This document shows positions 24,440-37,183 of a DNA stretch of 64,000 bases, in pieces. The notes beneath the pieces are model-generated. The model made no database searches and was not told the origin of the DNA. It saw only the letters and a list, made by a program, of their open reading frames with translations. Every line of letters starts with the position of its first letter. Positions within the stretch are counted from its first letter, which is position 1. The position numbers and the translations under genes were made by a program. The stretch is from assembly GCF_024223415.1 (NCBI RefSeq), contig NZ_CP100500.1; one strand, given 5' to 3'. This stretch comes from Escherichia coli (GTDB lineage: Bacteria > Pseudomonadota > Gammaproteobacteria > Enterobacterales > Enterobacteriaceae).

Positions 24440-24982
24440 ATGTTAAACCGTGACTTCGATCATCTCTCAACGCTATTACATCTCTTTTTTGAACGTGAGG
24501 ATATTTGCCAAAAGCTTAATATTATTGACCAAAACAATATCACCGGTTGGGAAGTGTGGTTCCAGGTAGAGTTTGCTAATATGCTCTGCTCAACAGACCA
24601 TGAATGGTGGCGTGAACAAGCACTTTCCTGTGATATGCGCAAAAAACCTGAGCGCCCGACACTACGCACAGATTTCTTACTACGTAAAAAAGGCTGGGCA
24701 CAAGATAGCTATATCGCGCTTGAAATAAAACAAAACAGAGACGCGACCAGTTGTGTTAAAAATATGATCGCAGACTTAGAAAAAAGCGCAAAAATAAAAC
24801 GTTCCGAACTCGATTTACGCAGTTTCTGGACCTTGGGTATCACCCCTATGATAGACAGGGAAAGGCTGGACTCTCTCATCGATTGCTATTTAGATGAGAA
24901 ATTTTATCTTACTAAATCTCGTAAAAAACACGTTTTACTTAAAGAAATAAATAACACACCATATTGCTATATTGTTATTTAA
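24440..24982 (+). CDS. Hypothetical protein, AT-rich orphan ORF (180 aa) with possible PD-(D/E)xK-like motif
   Basis: ATG preceded by aagaaagga; markedly AT-rich versus flanking core genes; residues ...RTDFLL...IALEIKQ... resemble a D...ExK nuclease core; no family recognised. Confidence 0.4.
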   Translation: MLNRDFDHLSTLLHLFFEREDICQKLNIIDQNNITGWEVWFQVEFANMLCSTDHEWWREQALSCDMRKKPERPTLRTDFLLRKKGWAQDSYIALEIKQNRDATSCVKNMIADLEKSAKIKRSELDLRSFWTLGITPMIDRERLDSLIDCYLDEKFYLTKSRKKHVLLKEINNTPYCYIVI

Positions 24983-25090
24983 TATTTATAGCATGAATAT
25001 AATTTTTAAATGAGTTACACAACCGAGGGCTAAAAATCGCTTCGGTTGTGATCATCATCACATAAATAACCTTCATAAACCTTGCTCAAA

Positions 25091-27688: not shown

Positions 27689-28645
27689 ATGAACCCGATT
27701 GCAGTTACCCTACTCACCGGTTTTTTAGGCGCGGGCAAAACCACCCTGCTGCGCCATATTCTTAATGAACAACACGGCTACAAGATTGCCGTGATTGAAA
27801 ACGAATTCGGCGAAGTCTCCGTTGATGATCAACTGATTGGCGACCGCGCCACGCAGATCAAAACGCTGACCAACGGCTGCATCTGCTGTTCGCGCTCCAA
27901 CGAGCTGGAAGACGCACTACTCGACCTGCTGGATAATCTCGATAAGGGCAATATTCAGTTCGATCGTCTGGTCATTGAATGCACCGGCATGGCCGATCCC
28001 GGCCCGATTATTCAGACCTTTTTCTCCCATGAGATTTTATGCCAGCGTTACCTGCTGGACGGCGTGATTGCGCTGGTGGATGCGGTACATGCCGATGAGC
28101 AGATGAACCAGTTCACCATCGCCCAGTCCCAGGTTGGCTACGCCGACCGTATTCTGCTGACGAAAACCGACGTCGCAGGCGAAGCAGAGAAACTGCTTGA
28201 ACGTCTGGCGCGCATCAACGCCCGTGCACCGGTCTACACCGTCACCCACGGCGACATCGACCTGGGTCTGCTGTTCAACACCAACGGTTTTATGCTGGAA
28301 GAGAATGTCGTCAGCACCAAACCGCGTTTCCACTTTATCGCGGACAAACAAAACGATATTTCGTCGATTGTGGTGGAACTGGATTACCCGGTAGATATCA
28401 GCGAAGTTTCCCGGGTGATGGAAAACCTGCTGCTGGAATCGGCAGATAAACTACTGCGTTACAAAGGGATGCTATGGATTGACGGCGAACCTAACCGCCT
28501 GCTGTTCCAGGGCGTCCAGCGCCTCTACAGCGCCGACTGGGACCGCCCGTGGGGCGATGAGAAACCGCATAGCACGATGGTGTTTATCGGGATTCAGCTG
28601 CCGGAGGATGAGATTCGGGCGGCGTTTGCGGGGTTGAGGAAGTAA
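27689..28645 (+). CDS. yjiA: CobW/ZNG1-family metal-chaperone GTPase
   Basis: P-loop LTGFLGAGKTTLL; CICC motif; start at ATG 27689 (MNPIAVTLL) rather than the upstream in-frame start that overlaps yjiX. Confidence 0.9.
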   Translation: MNPIAVTLLTGFLGAGKTTLLRHILNEQHGYKIAVIENEFGEVSVDDQLIGDRATQIKTLTNGCICCSRSNELEDALLDLLDNLDKGNIQFDRLVIECTGMADPGPIIQTFFSHEILCQRYLLDGVIALVDAVHADEQMNQFTIAQSQVGYADRILLTKTDVAGEAEKLLERLARINARAPVYTVTHGDIDLGLLFNTNGFMLEENVVSTKPRFHFIADKQNDISSIVVELDYPVDISEVSRVMENLLLESADKLLRYKGMLWIDGEPNRLLFQGVQRLYSADWDRPWGDEKPHSTMVFIGIQLPEDEIRAAFAGLRK

Positions 28646-28678
28646 TTTTGGATGATGGCCGCCATGTGGCGGCCTGAA

Positions 28679-28981
28679 TTATTTTTTGTTCTGATCGCGC
28701 AGCATCGCTTCACGTAAAATTGCGTTCAGGCGAGTTTGATAGCCTTTACCAGGTCGCTTCAGCCATTCCATCACATCAGCATCAATACGCACCGAAGCCT
28801 GGGTTTTCAATGGCCGATAAAACTTACCGCGTTCTGCGTTAGACCATTGCTCATCGCTGGAAGGCGGGATATCACTGTAATCAATATCTTCGTCGAATTT
28901 ATTCGCCAGTGCCTTCAGTTCGGCCTCATGCTGCACATCGAGTGTAGAGGGTGTCCCTCGTTTATGTTTAACCATGCTCAT
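28679..28981 (-). CDS. brnA: BrnA-like antitoxin (DUF4415/COG3514)
   Basis: C-terminal VRIDADVMEWLKRPGKGYQTRLNAILREAM is the hallmark BrnA motif; start at internal ATG (MSMVKHKRG) overlapping the brnT 3' end by 14 nt. Confidence 0.7.
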   Translation of the reverse strand: MSMVKHKRGTPSTLDVQHEAELKALANKFDEDIDYSDIPPSSDEQWSNAERGKFYRPLKTQASVRIDADVMEWLKRPGKGYQTRLNAILREAMLRDQNKK

Positions 28982-29255
28982 AGCGACTCCTCTCTTTACG
29001 ATCTGCTTTTCGTGCACTGATGATTCGAATAATTTCATTTCCGCTTTCGAAACGGATGGTATGCGCAACCAGAATAACCACGATACCGTGAACCAGGCCG
29101 ATAGTCTGCCAGCGATACTCACCGTTTTCTATGCGATCTTGCTGTGACAAATGTTGTGGATCATCAAACACTAACACCGCATCTTCAAAGCGGATGCCAT
29201 GTTTCACCCGATTACTTTTGGCCTTGTTTGCATCCCATTCAAACTCCATTGGCAT
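28968..29255 (-). CDS. brnT: BrnT-like toxin (DUF497/COG2929, RelE-fold ribonuclease)
   Basis: N-terminus ...MEFEWDANKAKSNRVKHGIRFEDAVLVFDD is the typical BrnT signature; toxin gene lies upstream of the antitoxin as in brnTA operons; start ambiguous among three nearby ATG (29249/29255/29264). Confidence 0.7.
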   Translation of the reverse strand: MPMEFEWDANKAKSNRVKHGIRFEDAVLVFDDPQHLSQQDRIENGEYRWQTIGLVHGIVVILVAHTIRFESGNEIIRIISARKADRKERSRYEHG

Positions 29256-29451
29256 AGTTGCCATCCCTAATTGTATATACAAAAATGTATCTACAATTAT
29301 TCTGCAATTATAGCGTTGATGTTGGAAATAGCATCACGTTTTGGATAATCAACCATGAAATTGACAATGAGTAAGTTGGACTTGATTCATCCAATAGAAT
29401 TTCTCGCCTGACATGGCACACTAAACACCTCGCTGTCGTTAAGGGATTACC

Positions 29452-30618
29452 GTGAAAAACTATAAAGTTATTACCCCGCTTTTTCCTACCTATGCACAGG
29501 TTAAAGCTATGATGAAAGCCGTCTCAGGCTATTCCCTGAAAGCGGTACGCAATATGATTACCGCCATTCGCGATCAAACCGGTACGCCGCAAAAACCCGT
29601 TGACTGGTCGGAACCTGACCTGTGGATCAGCGAACGCTTAACGGGCGAAGATGCCGACATCGCCCGTCGTATTTGGGATACAGATAATCACATATTGAAC
29701 CCGCGCCACAGCTACGGCTGCTACTTATTCCTCAACTATCCCCAGTTTGAGCTGATGGAAAGCACGCCAGATGATACCTGGCAGCCCACCTCGCGCGGGC
29801 AAAAATTCCTGCAAGATGACGAAAAAACGCTGCGTTCACTGGATGACCAGGAAGGCATTCTGCAACTGCTTGAGCTGCTGGCTGGCCGGGAAATGTCGCG
29901 CCGCGCCGATTTATTGCCGGAATGGCAGGCCTTTTTGCATCAGCATTCGAAATTCGCGTCTGCAAGTTCAGTGAAAAGCACGCTCTACTCCCGTCTCTAT
30001 AACCTTATTGACCGTGGCATGGTTACTCGCGAAGGTATGAGCTATTGCATCACCGATACCGGACGCGCCTGGCTTGGAAAAGCGTTGCCAGCACGAAAAA
30101 GCGATCCGCGTAAAGAGCTGTTGGAAGCGGTGAAACGCTACAACGAGCAGCAAAAAGAGCTGCTGCGCGAACAAATCAGCACGATGAACCCGTACAAATT
30201 TGAACAACTGGTCGGTCAATTACTGGAAGCAATGGGCTACGAGCAGGTCGAAGTGACCAAAGCCTCAGGCGATAAAGGTGTGGACGTGATTGGTCAGGTG
30301 CAGGTCGGCATCACCACTATTACCGAAGTGGTGCAGGTCAAAAGAATGCAGAACACCATCACTCGACCGTATATCGACCAGTTGCGCGGAGCGTTGCCTT
30401 ACCACAAAGCCATTCGCGGTACGCTCATCACCACCGGGAAATTTGCGGCGAAATGTGCAGAAGCGGCGCTCTTTCCGGGGGCAGCGCCCATTACGCTTAT
30501 CGACGGCGATCGCTTACTGGAACTGTTAATCGAAAATAACGTCGGCATTCGCCGCAGCAATGCAGTGGAATTGCTGGATGTAGATTTGCAGTTGTTTGAT
30601 GAGCTGGAGATGGATTAA
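29452..30618 (+). CDS. Mrr-family (type IV-like) restriction endonuclease with extended N-terminal region
   Basis: C-terminal Mrr_cat-like core (GDKGVDVIG...TEVVQVKR, D...QxK variant); GTG start preceded by aaggga; ends 63 bp before hsdM on the same strand. Confidence 0.75.
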   Translation: MKNYKVITPLFPTYAQVKAMMKAVSGYSLKAVRNMITAIRDQTGTPQKPVDWSEPDLWISERLTGEDADIARRIWDTDNHILNPRHSYGCYLFLNYPQFELMESTPDDTWQPTSRGQKFLQDDEKTLRSLDDQEGILQLLELLAGREMSRRADLLPEWQAFLHQHSKFASASSVKSTLYSRLYNLIDRGMVTREGMSYCITDTGRAWLGKALPARKSDPRKELLEAVKRYNEQQKELLREQISTMNPYKFEQLVGQLLEAMGYEQVEVTKASGDKGVDVIGQVQVGITTITEVVQVKRMQNTITRPYIDQLRGALPYHKAIRGTLITTGKFAAKCAEAALFPGAAPITLIDGDRLLELLIENNVGIRRSNAVELLDVDLQLFDELEMD

Positions 30619-30681: not shown

Positions 30682-32301
30682 ATGGCCAAAGCACCAACTA
30701 AAAAAGCCAAAGCAAAGAAAGGCTTTGAAGAAACATTATGGGATACTGCAAACCAACTTCGCGGTAGCGTTGAGTCCTCCGAATACAAGCACGTGGTGTT
30801 AAGCCTCGTGTTCCTGAAATTCATCAGCGATAAGTTTGAAGCACGCCGCAAAAAAATGATTGCCGATGGGCAAGCTGACTTCCTTGAGATGGAAGTGTTC
30901 TACCAGCAGGACAACATTTTCTACCTGCCGGAAGAGGCGCGCTGGTCATTTATCAAACAAAATGCCAAACAGGACGATATTGCGGTTCGTATTGACACCG
31001 CCCTCTCGACCATTGAGAAACGTAACCCAACCCTGAAAGGCGCGCTGCCAGACAACTACTTCAGCCGTCAGAATCTGGAAACCAAAAAACTGGCGTCACT
31101 GATTGATACCATCGACAACGTCGAAACGCTGGCACACGAAACTGACGTTGAAACGTTGTCGAAAGAAGACCTGGTCGGACGCGTTTACGAATACTTCCTC
31201 GGTAAGTTTGCCGCAACCGAAGGCAAAGGCGGTGGTGAGTTCTACACGCCCAAATGTGTGGTTACGCTGTTAACTGAAATGCTCGAACCTTTCCAGGGCA
31301 AAATCTATGACCCATGCTGCGGCTCGGCGGGGATGTTCGTGCAGTCGGTGAAGTTTGTCGAGAGCCATCAGGGTAAAAGTCGTGATATCGCGCTGTATGG
31401 TCAGGAACTGACAGCCACGACGTATAAACTGGCAAAAATGAACCTCGCCATTCGCGGCCTTTCAGCAAACCTCGGCGAACGCCCGGCAGACACTTTCTTT
31501 AGCGACCAGCACCCGGACCTGAAAGCCGACTACATTCTGGCGAACCCGCCGTTCAACCTGAAAGACTGGCGTAATGAAGCCGAATTAACCAAAGATCCAC
31601 GTTTTGCTGGTTATCGTATGCCGCCAACCGGTAACGCCAACTACGGCTGGATTTTGCATATGCTCTCCAAGCTGTCGGCTAACGGCACAGCAGGTTTTGT
31701 GCTGGCAAACGGTTCGATGAGTTCTAACACCAGCGGTGAAGGCGAGATCCGTGCGCAGATGATCGAAAATGATCTGATCGACTGCATGATCGCCCTACCT
31801 GGTCAGTTGTTTTACACCACGCAGATCCCGGTGTGTTTATGGTTTATGACCAAATCGAAGGCTGCCGACCCGGCCAAAGGTTATCGTGATCGTCAGGGCG
31901 AGACGCTGTTTATTGATGCGCGTAACCTCGGCACCATGATTAGCCGCACAACTAAAGAGTTAACGGCGGAAGATATTGCCACCATCGCCGATACCTACCA
32001 TGCATGGCGCAGTACGCCGGAAGAACTGGCTGCACGGATTGCGCGTGGTGACAGCAAGCTGGAAAAATATGAAGACCAGGCAGGCTTCAGCAAAGTTGCG
32101 ACCCTGCAAGATATTAAAGATAACGACTACGTGCTGACGCCGGGCCGCTATGTGGGTGCAGCCGAGCAGGAAGAGGACGGCGTGGCATTTGAGACAAAAA
32201 TGCGGGAGTTGTCGAAGACGTTGTTTGAGCAGATGAAGCAGGCGGAAGAACTGGATTGTGCGATTCGCCAGAATCTGGAGGCGCTGGGTTATGGGGAGTA
32301 A
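30682..32301 (+). CDS. hsdM: Type I R-M N6-adenine DNA methyltransferase subunit
   Basis: 539-aa ORF with SAM-binding motif I (DPCCGSAGMF) and catalytic NPPF (ILANPPFNL); N-terminus unlike EcoKI HsdM. Confidence 0.9.
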   Translation: MAKAPTKKAKAKKGFEETLWDTANQLRGSVESSEYKHVVLSLVFLKFISDKFEARRKKMIADGQADFLEMEVFYQQDNIFYLPEEARWSFIKQNAKQDDIAVRIDTALSTIEKRNPTLKGALPDNYFSRQNLETKKLASLIDTIDNVETLAHETDVETLSKEDLVGRVYEYFLGKFAATEGKGGGEFYTPKCVVTLLTEMLEPFQGKIYDPCCGSAGMFVQSVKFVESHQGKSRDIALYGQELTATTYKLAKMNLAIRGLSANLGERPADTFFSDQHPDLKADYILANPPFNLKDWRNEAELTKDPRFAGYRMPPTGNANYGWILHMLSKLSANGTAGFVLANGSMSSNTSGEGEIRAQMIENDLIDCMIALPGQLFYTTQIPVCLWFMTKSKAADPAKGYRDRQGETLFIDARNLGTMISRTTKELTAEDIATIADTYHAWRSTPEELAARIARGDSKLEKYEDQAGFSKVATLQDIKDNDYVLTPGRYVGAAEQEEDGVAFETKMRELSKTLFEQMKQAEELDCAIRQNLEALGYGE

Positions 32302-33604
32302 TGCTATTACAACAATAATTGGTGAACACTTGCTGATTAGAAATGGCAAATCTTCGCCATCAAGAGCCATAACAGGAGAATATCCTGTTTATGGTTCAAA
32401 TGGAATAATAGGTTATTCAGATGAATATAACGCTAATGAAAATACAATAATTATCGGGCGTGTTGGGTCATATTGTGGTTCAGTTTATATTTCCGATAAA
32501 AAATGTTGGGTCACTGATAATGCAATAATTGGAACCGCAAAGAATGAAAATGAAAGTCATTTTTGGTTCTATCTTTTAAAAAAAATAGATTTGAACAATT
32601 ATAGTACTGGTTCAGGCCAACCTCTCATTAACCAAACAATAATTAATACAATATCCGTTACCATTCCTAAGCTCAGTGAGAAAAGAGTAGCCATTGGACA
32701 TTTTTTACGCCACTTTGATCAAAAGATAAATTTATCTCTTAATATCAATCAATCCTTGGAACAAATGTCCCAAACCTTGTTCAAATCCTGGTTTGTGGAT
32801 TTCGATCCGGTGATTGATAACGCGCTGGACGCGGGAAACCCAATCCCGGAAGCGATGCAATCTCGCGCAGAACTGCGTCAAAAAGTACGTAATAGTGCAG
32901 ATTTTAAACCGCTTCTAGCGGAAATCCGCTCGCTTTTCCCAAGTGAATTTGAAGAAACCGAACCAGGATGGTTACCTAAGGGCTGGAAACATGGTAATTT
33001 AAATGATGTCACGAAGATCTTAAGTGGGTTTGCTTTTAAGAGTAAAGACTTTGGTGATGAAGGTAAAAGTGTCATAAAAATAAAGAACATTAATATCGAT
33101 AAAACAATTGATATAGATCATACTCAAAAAATTTCTGATATCGTAGCCAAAGACGTAAAGCGTTTTCAATTATTTGATGCCGATATTTTGATGGCTATGA
33201 CTGGTGCCACGGTCGGTAAATTTGGAATATTAGCATCAAAAAATCATGAAGAATATTATCTTAACCAACGAGTTGCGAAGTTTGAAACAGATAAAAAAGC
33301 TTACCTTTATTGTATATTGAATCAAGAAAGTACCGAAAGATTTATAATCAATACAGCTCAGGGCAGTGCACAACCAAATATCAGTGCTAAAGATATTTTA
33401 AGTATTCCACTCACACTACCATCAAACGAAATAATAACTATATTCAATACATTTGTTGATCCTTTATTCTACAGAATGATAGCGAATACAAAAGTTAGTT
33501 TAAGTCTAACAGAACTCCGCGACACCTTGCTCCCAAAACTCATCTCCGGCGAGCTCTCCCTGGAAGATCTTCCGGATCTCAGCACCAATACAGAAGCCGC
33601 ATAA
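32291..33604 (+). CDS. hsdS: Type I R-M specificity subunit
   Basis: Two AT-rich variable target-recognition regions separated by a conserved central region (SLEQMSQTLFKSWFVDFDP) plus conserved C-terminal helix (LTELRDTLLPKLISGEL); ATG at 32291 overlaps the hsdM 3' end. Confidence 0.85.
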   Translation: MGSNAITTIIGEHLLIRNGKSSPSRAITGEYPVYGSNGIIGYSDEYNANENTIIIGRVGSYCGSVYISDKKCWVTDNAIIGTAKNENESHFWFYLLKKIDLNNYSTGSGQPLINQTIINTISVTIPKLSEKRVAIGHFLRHFDQKINLSLNINQSLEQMSQTLFKSWFVDFDPVIDNALDAGNPIPEAMQSRAELRQKVRNSADFKPLLAEIRSLFPSEFEETEPGWLPKGWKHGNLNDVTKILSGFAFKSKDFGDEGKSVIKIKNINIDKTIDIDHTQKISDIVAKDVKRFQLFDADILMAMTGATVGKFGILASKNHEEYYLNQRVAKFETDKKAYLYCILNQESTERFIINTAQGSAQPNISAKDILSIPLTLPSNEIITIFNTFVDPLFYRMIANTKVSLSLTELRDTLLPKLISGELSLEDLPDLSTNTEAA

Positions 33605-33612
33605 CGCATTTT

Positions 33613-33637
33613 GCCCCTGTAAAATCAGGGGCTTTCT
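33613..33637 (+). terminator. Hairpin with T-run between hsdS and hsdR (possible attenuator)
   Basis: gcccctg-taaaat-caggggc followed by tttct, 9 bp after the hsdS stop and about 60 bp before the hsdR ATG. Confidence 0.45.
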
Positions 33638-33698
33638 GGTAAGGTTTTCTACTGATACGGGAATGCTTACCAGAAATTAGCCAGGGTTGGAGCGCGAT

Positions 33699-36600
33699 AT
33701 GAGTCTCTCTTTCAGTGAAGCAAAATTAGAACAAGCGATCATTGAACTGCTGCAGGATCAGGGATATCAACACCTGATCGGCGATAATGTCCCACGTTCA
33801 AGTCTCGATCAGGTCATCATCGAAGACGATCTCCGTCATTATTTAGCGGCACGCTACCAGCCTGATGGCATTACTGAAGAAGAGATTCAACGGCTGATCA
33901 AACAGTTCACCACGCTTCCGGCCTCCGACCTTTATGAAAGCAACAAAACATTTTGTCGCTGGCTGGCAAATGGTTTTCTGTTCAAACGCGACGATCGGCA
34001 ACAAAAAGATCTCTATATTGAATTGCTCGACACCCGGCATCTACCCGCCGCACTGCGCCAGATATTTGACACCGACGATGTCCCGTTGCAACAGGCGGCG
34101 GAACTCCCGCCTTCCTATATTAATCCGCCGCTTAACCGGATTAAGATTGTTAACCAGCTTAAAATCTCCGGTAAAGATAATCAGACTCGTATTCCTGACG
34201 GCATTCTCTATATCAACGGTCTGCCACTGGTCGTCTTTGAATTTAAAAGTGCGGTGCGCGAGCAAGAAGCCAGTATTGGCGATGCCTGGAAGCAGCTCTG
34301 TAAACGCTATCGCCGGGATATTCCGCAACTGTTTATCTACAACGCGCTCTGCGTTATCAGCGATGGCGTAAATAACCGGATGGGCAACCTGTTTGCGCCC
34401 TATGAATACTTTTACTCATGGCGCAAAGTCACCGGTAATGAAAACCGTGAACAGGACGGAATTCCATCATTGCACTCAATGATTCAGGGGCTGTTTCATC
34501 CGGTACGTCTGCTGGACGTGATTAAAAACTTTATCTGCTTCCCGGATAAAGCCAAGCACGAAGTAAAAATTTGCTGCCGATATCCGCAGTACTATGCCGC
34601 CCGCAAACTCTATTACAGCATCAAGCAAGCGCGTAAACCTTTCGGTAGCGGTAAAGGCGGCACCTACTTTGGCGCAACGGGCTGTGGCAAAAGTTACACC
34701 ATGCAATTTTTAACGCGTCTTTTGATGAAGAGCGTGGAGTTTGCCAGCCCGACCATTGTTTTGATCACCGACCGCACCGATCTGGACGATCAGCTTTCTG
34801 CGCAAATGTGCAACGCCAAAAATTACATTGGCGACGACACCATCGTTCCTGTTACCAGCCGTGAAGATTTGCGTAATCAACTGGCGGGACGCAATAGTGG
34901 CGGTGTATTCCTGACAACGATCCATAAATTCACCGAAGACACCGAACTCCTTTCTGAACGCAGCAATATCATTTGCATCTCGGACGAAGCACATCGCAGC
35001 CAGGTTAACCTCGACCAGAAAGTCATCGTCGATAAAGAAAGCGGAAAAGTGCGCAAAACTTATGGCTTTGCGAAATACCTGCACGATTCACTGCCAAACG
35101 CCACCTATGTTGGCTTTACCGGCACACCGATTGACGCGACGCTCGATGTCTTCGGTGAGGTGATCGACAGTTACACCATGACCGAATCCGTTCAGGATGA
35201 AATCACTGTACGCATCGTGTACGAAGGCCGTGCGGCTAAAGTGATCCTGGACTCCAGTAAACTGGAAGAAGTTGAAAAGTATTACGAAGAGTGCGCAAAC
35301 GCAGGCACCAATGAGTGGCAAATCGACGAAAGCAAAAAAGCCACCGCAACCATGAATGCGGTACTGGGTGATGAAGATCGGTTAAAAGCCCTCGCGGAAG
35401 ATTTTGCCAAACATTATGAAAAACGCGTAGACGAAGGTTCCACCGTAAAAGGCAAAGCCATGTTTGTTTGTGCCAGCCGTGAAATTGCCTGGGATTTCTA
35501 CCGTCAGCTTAAAGCTATTCGCCCTGCCTGGTTTGAAGTGAAGCAAGCACCCGATGGCGTCGTCCTGACGGAACAGGAGCAGAAAGAGTTACCGCCTTCA
35601 GAAATGGTGAAGATGGTCATGACGCGCGGTAAAGATGACGACGAGGCGCTTTATGATTTACTGGGCACAAAAGAATATCGTAAAGAGCTGGATAAACAGT
35701 TTAAAAACGCTAAATCGAATTTCAAAATTGCCATTGTTGTTGATATGTGGCTGACCGGTTTCGACGTCCCGGAACTGGATACCATCTATATTGATAAACC
35801 CTTACAAAAACATAATCTTATCCAGACCATTTCTCGCGTTAACCGTAAACTGGAAGGCAAAAGTAAAGGGTTAGTGGTGGACTACATCGGCATTAAAAGT
35901 CAGATGAACCAGGCACTGGCAATGTATTCCCGCATTGATGCCACCAACTTTGAAGATATTCAGCAATCGGTAATAGAAGTTAAAAACCATCTCGATTTGT
36001 TGGGGCAAGTCTTTTACGAATTTGACAGTCGGGATTATTTTAGTGGTGAGCCACAAGCGCAATTATCCTGCCTCAACCGCGCGGCGGAATTTGTTCTGCG
36101 TACCCAGAAAGTTGAACGTCGTTTTATGGGACTGGTTAAACGCATGAAAGCCGCCTACGACGTCTGCTGCGGCAGCGAAGCATTATCACAGACAGAACGT
36201 GACTATATTCACTATTATCTTGCTGTTCGTTCAATTGTTTTCAAACTGACGAAAGGTGACGCACCGGATGTCACCCAGATGAATGCACGCGTTCGTGAAA
36301 TGATTGCAGAAGCGTTAAAAGCTGATGGCGTAGAAGAGATTTATTTTCTTGGCGATAAAAAAGCGGAATCCATCGATATTTTTGACGAAGATTATCTGGC
36401 ACGAATTAACAAGATCAAACTTCCGGCAACGAAGATCCAGTTATTACAAAAATTACTGGAAAAAGCGATCAGCGACTTCAAGAAAGTGAACCAGTTGCAA
36501 GGGATTAACTTCACCCGCCGCTTCCAGGCAATTATAGATCGTTATAATGAGCGGCGAGAAGATGATGTACTCAACGGTGAAGAATTCGATACATTCAGTC

Positions 36601-36962
36601 AGGAAATGACCGATATTATCTATGATATTAAAACCGAAATGGGCACCTGGGCCGATTTAGGCATTGATATTGAAGAAAAAGCGTTTTTCGACATTCTTGC
36701 TCATATGCGCGATAAATATCAGTTCACCTATGACGATGAAAAAATGCTGTCACTGGCAAAAGAGATGAAAAGCGTGGTTGACAACACATCGAAATATCCT
36801 GACTGGAGTAAACGTGATGATATTAAAGCGAAACTGAAAGTTGAACTTATTCTGCTTCTACACAAGCATAAGTTCCCGCCAGTAGCGAATGATGATGTTT
36901 ATATGGGTGTGCTGGCACAGGCAGAGAATTTTAAAGAACACCATATGAGTGCTTTAAATTAA
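33699..36962 (+). CDS. hsdR: Type I R-M restriction subunit (nuclease/helicase)
   Basis: N-terminal PD-(D/E)xK (…LPLVVFEFKS), Walker A (GATGCGKS), DEAH box (ISDEAHRSQ); ATG 33699 preceded by ggag. Confidence 0.9.
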   Translation: MSLSFSEAKLEQAIIELLQDQGYQHLIGDNVPRSSLDQVIIEDDLRHYLAARYQPDGITEEEIQRLIKQFTTLPASDLYESNKTFCRWLANGFLFKRDDRQQKDLYIELLDTRHLPAALRQIFDTDDVPLQQAAELPPSYINPPLNRIKIVNQLKISGKDNQTRIPDGILYINGLPLVVFEFKSAVREQEASIGDAWKQLCKRYRRDIPQLFIYNALCVISDGVNNRMGNLFAPYEYFYSWRKVTGNENREQDGIPSLHSMIQGLFHPVRLLDVIKNFICFPDKAKHEVKICCRYPQYYAARKLYYSIKQARKPFGSGKGGTYFGATGCGKSYTMQFLTRLLMKSVEFASPTIVLITDRTDLDDQLSAQMCNAKNYIGDDTIVPVTSREDLRNQLAGRNSGGVFLTTIHKFTEDTELLSERSNIICISDEAHRSQVNLDQKVIVDKESGKVRKTYGFAKYLHDSLPNATYVGFTGTPIDATLDVFGEVIDSYTMTESVQDEITVRIVYEGRAAKVILDSSKLEEVEKYYEECANAGTNEWQIDESKKATATMNAVLGDEDRLKALAEDFAKHYEKRVDEGSTVKGKAMFVCASREIAWDFYRQLKAIRPAWFEVKQAPDGVVLTEQEQKELPPSEMVKMVMTRGKDDDEALYDLLGTKEYRKELDKQFKNAKSNFKIAIVVDMWLTGFDVPELDTIYIDKPLQKHNLIQTISRVNRKLEGKSKGLVVDYIGIKSQMNQALAMYSRIDATNFEDIQQSVIEVKNHLDLLGQVFYEFDSRDYFSGEPQAQLSCLNRAAEFVLRTQKVERRFMGLVKRMKAAYDVCCGSEALSQTERDYIHYYLAVRSIVFKLTKGDAPDVTQMNARVREMIAEALKADGVEEIYFLGDKKAESIDIFDEDYLARINKIKLPATKIQLLQKLLEKAISDFKKVNQLQGINFTRRFQAIIDRYNERREDDVLNGEEFDTFSQEMTDIIYDIKTEMGTWADLGIDIEEKAFFDILAHMRDKYQFTYDDEKMLSLAKEMKSVVDNTSKYPDWSKRDDIKAKLKVELILLLHKHKFPPVANDDVYMGVLAQAENFKEHHMSALN

Positions 36963-37104: not shown

Positions 37105-37183
37105 TAGCGCGGTGCGGATGTGCGCCAACACACCCGCACCGCTCATCACAATCACTATTTTCAAGGAATAGCAGTTATGACTG
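37105..37183 (-). ncRNA. symR: SymR antisense sRNA (approximate coordinates)
   Basis: Placed by analogy with the K-12 symE/SymR type I TA arrangement, where a ~77-nt antisense RNA overlaps the symE RBS and start codon; boundaries not determined from sequence. Confidence 0.35.

Follow-up and report, generated by a model that had tools for sequence, protein, structure and literature searches.

The window, that is, the whole 64-kb stretch of E. coli DNA analysed here, is 99.97% identical to E. coli SCU-316. Following the gene order of that strain, it carries btsT, yjiX and yjiA, followed on the opposite strand by brnA and brnT, next a gene for a 388-aa 'restriction endonuclease', and continues through type I hsdM-hsdS-hsdR, symE, yjiS, yjiR, an rpn gene, mdtM and yjiN. 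We found that the pair on the opposite strand is an intact BrnT/BrnA type II toxin-antitoxin operon, ordinary and already known, which together with its neighbours comprises the following features:

27689..28645, plus strand: yjiA, a conserved anchor gene of the immigration control region, given as context (RefSeq).
28657..28674, no strand assigned: GC-rich hairpin GGCCGCC-ATGT-GGCGGCC, between the convergent genes yjiA and brnA.
28679..28981, minus strand: brnA antitoxin gene, 100 aa, MSMVKHKRG... (open reading frame, Pfam and RefSeq).
28968..28981, minus strand: overlap of brnT and brnA, 14 nt, from the brnT stop to the brnA start.
28968..29255, minus strand: brnT toxin gene, 95 aa, MPMEFEWDANK...RYEHG (open reading frame, Pfam, PDB and RefSeq).
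29268..29299, no strand assigned: putative BrnA/BrnTA operator, an imperfect palindrome TAATTGTAGATACA-N4-TGTATATACAATTA.
29296..29312, minus strand: two hexamers, TATAAT (29312-29307) and AATAAT (29301-29296), as candidate -10 elements for brnTA.
29321..29342, minus strand: conserved 22-nt block AAAACGTGATGCTATTTCCAAC, marking the module's upstream edge.
29452..30618, plus strand: 388-aa Mrr-like type IV restriction nuclease, divergent from brnTA, given as context (PADLOC).

Measured against K-12, the window loses homology precisely at the stop codon of yjiA (28645) and regains it at symE (37046). The K-12 genome has mrr directly next to yjiA, with no brnTA between them, and the earlier note on this DNA, which took the module to be foreign to this position in K-12, was right on this point. 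It had also placed the pair beside restriction genes, and these do adjoin it, namely the 388-aa Mrr-like nuclease (PADLOC candidate PDC-S02, E=7.7e-207; mREase_IV, E=1.3e-27) and a type I restriction-modification (R-M) system. The latter follows the nuclease at 30682-36962 on the plus strand, with the gene order M-S-R, and the two stand in place of the K-12 mrr-hsdR-hsdM-hsdS genes, mcrBC being absent. The same island holds a second module of the toxin-antitoxin type, SymR/symE, in which the SymR antisense RNA (37106-37182, minus strand; Rfam RF01809, 91.7 bits) faces the 5' end of symE.

Several other features of the window were recorded outside this region. Between tsr and btsT, an interval that in K-12 is only a 378-bp intergenic region, there is a 180-aa open reading frame (24440-24982, plus strand; RefSeq hypothetical protein WP_000934391.1), whose sole matches are weak, to a TnsA-like endonuclease N-terminal domain (E=0.11) and to a PADLOC orphan methyltransferase (E=9e-4), and whose ALEIK motif could belong to a PD-(D/E)xK nuclease. 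The region upstream of btsT also contains a perfect CRP consensus, TGTGATCATCATCACA, at 25047-25062. At 46122-48491 on the plus strand the window has an intact 789-aa open reading frame, the SCU-316 counterpart of which is a frameshifted pentapeptide-repeat protein; the gene is absent from WCHEC050613, where ytiA is followed directly by yjiK. Finally, four tandem copies of naRNA4 (CssrE, REP-type), about 101 nt apart, lie at 1188-1569.

The two minus-strand reading frames, their 14-nt overlap and the toxin-first order, all described previously, can be read directly from the sequence. The toxin frame contains MEFEWDANKAKSNRVKHGIRFEDA, reads ...MPMEFEWDANKAKSNRVKHGIRFEDA...RYEHG and ends with a TAA stop codon (28970-28968); it is full length and intact in the window. 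The antitoxin frame opens at the ATG at 28981, has RIDADVMEWLKRPGKGYQTRLNAILR inside and closes with the stop codon at 28681-28679. For the span of the pair, given by the earlier note as 28679-29264, the lower bound and the two frames stand, but the upper bound must be moved, since the conserved start of brnT is at 29255. The position 29264 is the first of the other in-frame brnT ATGs, the second being at 29249. Three observations place the gene at 28968-29255: in an alignment of 12 enterobacterial loci from 6 genera the ATG at 29255 (ATGCC...) is the sole invariant brnT start, RefSeq uses the same start (95 aa), and the N-terminus of the crystallised Salmonella homologue, PMEFEW..., fits it. 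On the minus strand, Shine-Dalgarno sequences precede both starts, AGGGA at 29268-29264 ahead of the brnT ATG and GAGAGGAG at 28987-28994 ahead of the brnA ATG. The overlap and the toxin-first order are kept in 11 orthologous loci, and the overlap implies that translation of brnT and brnA may be coupled.

The identity of both proteins, proposed earlier from short motifs, is upheld by strong profile matches over the full length of the Pfam models: BrnT matches BrnT_toxin (DUF497, PF04365) at positions 1-77 of 77 with E=7.9e-25, and BrnA matches BrnA_antitoxin (DUF4415, PF14384) at positions 1-68 of 68 with E=3.1e-17. Both proteins also fall in toxin and antitoxin families of PHROGs, BrnT matching PHROG 4399, 'ribonuclease toxin', with E=5.7e-23. 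Searches of NCBIfam gave no family match for either protein. In RefSeq the products are named 'BrnT family toxin' (WP_001295743.1) and 'BrnA antitoxin family protein' (WP_000063148.1), names used in thousands of genomes and in every one among the matches listed with both genes intact, and the two window proteins are identical to the most widespread RefSeq alleles. That the reading frames are not chance ones is evident from the comparison between genera, where synonymous sites are saturated and non-synonymous change is low (pS 0.6-0.9, pN 0.07-0.14). A review in EcoSal Plus (2025) includes brnAT in its list of toxin-antitoxin systems for the immigration control region, and the order T/A is that of the BrnT/BrnA family (PMC11980606). 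Our literature search found no functional study of the E. coli brnTA module.

The closest structural relative of the toxin is chain A of PDB 7VD7, which aligns with the whole of BrnT at about 85% identity (E=6e-53), followed at a much greater distance by the Brucella abortus BrnT in PDB 3U97 (E=3e-4). The AlphaFold model of BrnT has four strands plus helices (pLDDT 89.6) and, when used as a Foldseek query, gave 7VD7_A as its only significant hit (TM 0.85), so that the protein is predicted to have a RelE-like fold, an antiparallel beta-sheet packed on short helices. In the account of Brucella BrnT given by a review of Heaton et al. 2012, residues D6, E7, K9, R41 and E78 matter for ribonuclease activity; they align to D8, A9, K11, R48 and E88 of the window protein, so that four of the five are kept, and these four are invariant across nine diverse BrnT sequences in our alignment. 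The fifth, an alanine at the position of Brucella E7, is found throughout the enterobacterial clade, the crystallised Salmonella protein included, and from this distribution we read it as a probable clade feature rather than an inactivating change. Moreover, brnT is under purifying selection, with pS of 0.63-0.84 and pN of 0.07-0.11 between genera.

One non-conserved residue out of five in the ribonuclease set of Brucella, together with the fact that decayed forms of the module are common in E. coli, could suggest that in this strain the pair is degenerating or already inactive, a functionless remnant whose toxin is attenuated. We consider this highly improbable, given that both frames are full length and belong to the most widespread alleles, that the alanine occurs clade-wide and in a protein that was crystallised, that pN is far below pS, and that the promoter and operator, as predicted, appear intact.

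The antitoxin seems to be built of two parts, which we delimit as follows:

BrnA residues about 14-57: toxin-binding segment, by match to 7VD7_B.
BrnA residues about 58-100: putative ribbon-helix-helix DNA-binding domain, conserved between genera.

Residues 14-57 match the 44-residue fragment that is chain B of 7VD7 (E=9e-16). The C-terminal half is almost invariant, with pN of 0.01-0.08 against 0.13-0.19 in the N-terminal half, synonymous sites being saturated. The BrnA model has a pLDDT of only 65 overall, with a disordered N-terminal half, but residues 61-99 form an extended-helix-helix arrangement (pLDDT 76-86) that is compatible with a ribbon-helix-helix domain. Since the model is of low confidence and had no structural match in Foldseek, the assignment of this fold rests on the Pfam family and on the literature, in which BrnA antitoxins are described as having such a domain (PMC11980606); the PDB holds no structure of a BrnA C-terminal half.

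Upstream of brnT, conservation among orthologues extends over about 90 bp and takes in the 22-nt block, the -10, the palindrome and the Shine-Dalgarno sequence, beyond which the DNA is unrelated. The arms of the palindrome (29268-29281 and 29286-29299) are 14 nt each and 93% complementary. Across 12 loci from 6 genera the right arm, GTATATACAA, is invariant and the left arm nearly so, whereas the flanking DNA diverges, and a third copy resembling a half-site, TAATTGCA, lies at 29303-29310. Of the five matches to TAATTGYA in the 64-kb window, three sit within 43 bp upstream of brnT. The count over the whole window is no higher than chance (5 found against 5.6 expected), and only the clustering of the three copies and their conservation across genera carry weight. 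A simple sigma-70 scan called no minus-strand promoter at brnTA, there being no good -35. Regarding the two candidate -10 elements, the hexamer at 29301-29296 is AATAAT in the window and GATAAT in other genera. Whichever of the two is used, the palindrome is predicted to overlap the core promoter and the expected transcription start. The conservation of palindrome and -10 would fit autorepression through the DNA-binding domain of BrnA, and the invariance of its right arm appears to match the near invariance of the C-terminal half of the protein.

The 22-nt block AAAACGTGATGCTATTTCCAAC is nearly invariant across the six genera, homology ending just upstream of it, and it is kept at the junction of those E. 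coli variants that have lost the 5' part of brnT and the operator. We also weighed whether this block could be a CRP site of class II, with its centre at -41.5, but do not claim it: 3 mismatches have to be allowed, and matches of this quality are no more frequent than by chance (229 found against 224 expected). At the other end of the module, the hairpin at 28657-28674 was called as a plus-strand terminator, that of yjiA; it follows brnA by 4 nt on the minus strand, where it has no T-run, and for this reason termination of brnTA at the hairpin is uncertain.

Altogether, we regard it as very probable that the pair works as a canonical brnTA type II operon, with a ribonuclease toxin, neutralisation by BrnA, autorepression at the palindrome and translational coupling. 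For this strain, we infer the ribonuclease activity, the neutralisation and the autorepression by homology with the Brucella and Salmonella systems. Free BrnT would act as a small ribonuclease of the RelE/BECR fold, whose cutting of RNA would lead to translation arrest. The N-terminal segment of BrnA (about residues 14-57) would wrap around BrnT and neutralise it; binding of antitoxin to toxin is seen in the Salmonella homologue in 7VD7. The C-terminal domain of BrnA, alone or within a BrnT-BrnA complex, would bind the palindrome and repress the operon, and translation of brnA would be linked to that of brnT through the 14-nt overlap.

Among 5426 complete E. coli genomes, brnA or some part of the module is present in 2111 and the brnT core is kept in 1780, which leaves 331 carriers with brnA and no brnT core; about 61% of the genomes are without any part of the module. 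Only 879 of the 2111 carriers share the Mrr-like neighbour. In 15 of 30 evenly spaced rows of the search that gave this last count, homology ends at 29438, from which we estimate roughly 1000 E. coli genomes with this break, and the break itself (29438/29439) falls 14 bp before the start of the Mrr-like gene. In the two such genomes that were examined (L005 and L006, 9487-10184 in each) an IS1 lies at the break and brnTA with its promoter region is intact, the restriction island being either deleted, so that mdtM follows, or inverted, so that opgB follows.

In E. coli two forms of decay were resolved. One allele (L003 6001-6419) lacks 162 nt (28991-29152), which cuts BrnT short after about 35 residues, and also carries D8N. 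The second form (L004 6001-6374; L007 6712-7085) lacks 288 nt (29031-29318), including most of brnT together with the operator and the -10, and here a Fic gene and a GmrSD nuclease lie upstream of brnA. In one Citrobacter (L020 9794-10154) a 23-codon in-frame stub of brnT remains beside an intact brnA. This series, with loss of the toxin preceding that of the antitoxin, could be useful for studying how chromosomal toxin-antitoxin modules are lost.

Orthologues were sought by scanning one genome per species for the coding pattern of EFEWDANKA, and were found in E. albertii, five Citrobacter genomes, Pluralibacter, two Raoultella species, Klebsiella michiganensis, Enterobacter and another enterobacterium, with identities to the window proteins of 81-99% for BrnT and 77-85% for BrnA. 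The site near yjiA is also used in E. albertii, Citrobacter and Pluralibacter, an adjacency adequately shown by DNA-level conservation of yjiA, and no yjiA was found in the available flank of brnTA in Klebsiella, Raoultella and Enterobacter. The earlier note had taken the pair as accessory content of the defence island. This stands in so far as the pair lies inside the yjiA..yjiN region and is variable in E. coli, but the module is not tied to this restriction locus, since its site on the yjiA side recurs in other genera and it persists beside any cassette or none. We conclude that brnTA, about 0.7 kb in size, forms a unit by itself on the border with yjiA, that its presence varies, and that it is not bound to any one restriction cassette.

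The physiological role of this unit could be addiction or stabilisation of the locus, a stress response, or phage defence; between addiction or stabilisation and phage defence, both possible, the data favour neither decisively. A purely selfish addiction module, without benefit to the host, would be maintained next to yjiA through the killing of cells that lose it. In keeping with this, the unit of about 0.7 kb appears to have a promoter and an operator of its own, small plasmids carry many close family members (762 records, mostly Acinetobacter), the IS1-mediated rearrangements took the island away yet stopped short of brnTA, and the toxin has repeatedly been lost before the antitoxin, in 331 E. 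coli genomes and in one Citrobacter. However, the occupation of the same site in three genera and the strong purifying selection on the toxin are also compatible with a host benefit, and with about 61% of E. coli genomes lacking the module, its loss or replacement is clearly survivable. We therefore hold the purely selfish reading to be a tentative one, with the chances leaning somewhat against it.

Alternatively, brnTA could have been selected for abortive infection against phages, as a working part of the defence island, in which case the shut-off of host transcription by a phage, or the degradation of BrnA, would free BrnT and stop translation before phage release. The pair sits in the best-known defence island of E. 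coli, beside the Mrr-like nuclease (PDC-S02) and the type I R-M system, homologues occur in phage protein families, and BrnT-like ribonucleases adjoin other type IV restriction systems. Set against this, PADLOC has no model for, and gave no defence match to, either protein. Moreover, roughly 1000 E. coli genomes keep brnTA by an IS1, the restriction genes being deleted or rearranged in the two examined, and Klebsiella, Raoultella and Enterobacter carry brnTA at loci without yjiA, so that its co-location with restriction genes is not obligatory. On balance, we think a selected role in phage defence unlikely.

A further idea, which we consider distinctly doubtful, gives brnTA the part of a border guard for the immigration control region. 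If this were true, the module could be a phage-triggered abortive-infection ribonuclease that backs up the adjacent restriction enzymes, or else an addiction module by which deletions coming in from the side of the island are kept in check, and the orphan brnA genes of the 331 genomes could be anti-addiction genes, retained to neutralise incoming BrnT toxins of plasmids or phages.

The canonical operon that we describe is an ordinary one, being already annotated, already in the literature and present in about one third of E. coli genomes, and its value as a discovery is small: the family was characterised in 2012, the structure of a close homologue dates from 2022, RefSeq gives both names and the 2025 review lists the system. 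The by-products of the analysis are a corrected start codon, a candidate operator and promoter conserved across genera, and the independence of the module from the adjacent restriction cassette.

Compared with known systems, the nearest is the one deposited as PDB 7VD7, 'Toxin-Antitoxin complex from Salmonella enterica serovar Typhimurium' (released 2022-09-14), which belongs to the same enterobacterial BrnTA subfamily as the E. coli pair. It comes from another species, its toxin is about 14 substitutions apart, and of its antitoxin the crystal contains a fragment of only 44 residues, in which the DNA-binding half of BrnA is not seen. The organism is taken from the Foldseek entry description; an exact-sequence look-up of the 7VD7 toxin with an added Met returned no encoding contig, a tblastn search of plasmids gave only E. 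coli matches (84-85%), and a literature search found no paper describing the structure.

The prototype of the family is the Brucella abortus BrnT/BrnA pair (Heaton et al. 2012, JBC; PDB 3U97), which shares with the E. coli pair the same Pfam families, the toxin-first bicistronic order and the D/K/R/E of the ribonuclease set. The review of that work describes a 2:2 complex and autorepression for the prototype, which serve here as the model for E. coli brnTA. In contrast, the Brucella toxin is only about 30% identical to E. coli BrnT, whose equivalent of E7 is an alanine and which is longer, owing to an insertion around residues 34-37 and a C-terminal extension, and the Brucella operator sequence is apparently unrelated to the E. 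coli palindrome.

RelE/ParE toxins of the BECR fold, such as that of HigBA, resemble this module in being small basic ribonucleases with a protein antitoxin, autoregulated and, in the case of HigBA, with the toxin gene first. They differ in belonging to another Pfam family, and antitoxins of the HigA type are helix-turn-helix rather than ribbon-helix-helix proteins; ribosome dependence is established for HigB and RelE, not for BrnT (PMC11980606).

Finally, the BrnTA pairs on plasmids of Acinetobacter and other genera have the same families and annotation, at 55-63% identity. The 762 plasmid records with close family members, mostly from Acinetobacter, are of small mobilisable plasmids, in contexts typical of plasmid maintenance, whereas the E. 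coli module is chromosomal and occupies a fixed site beside yjiA.
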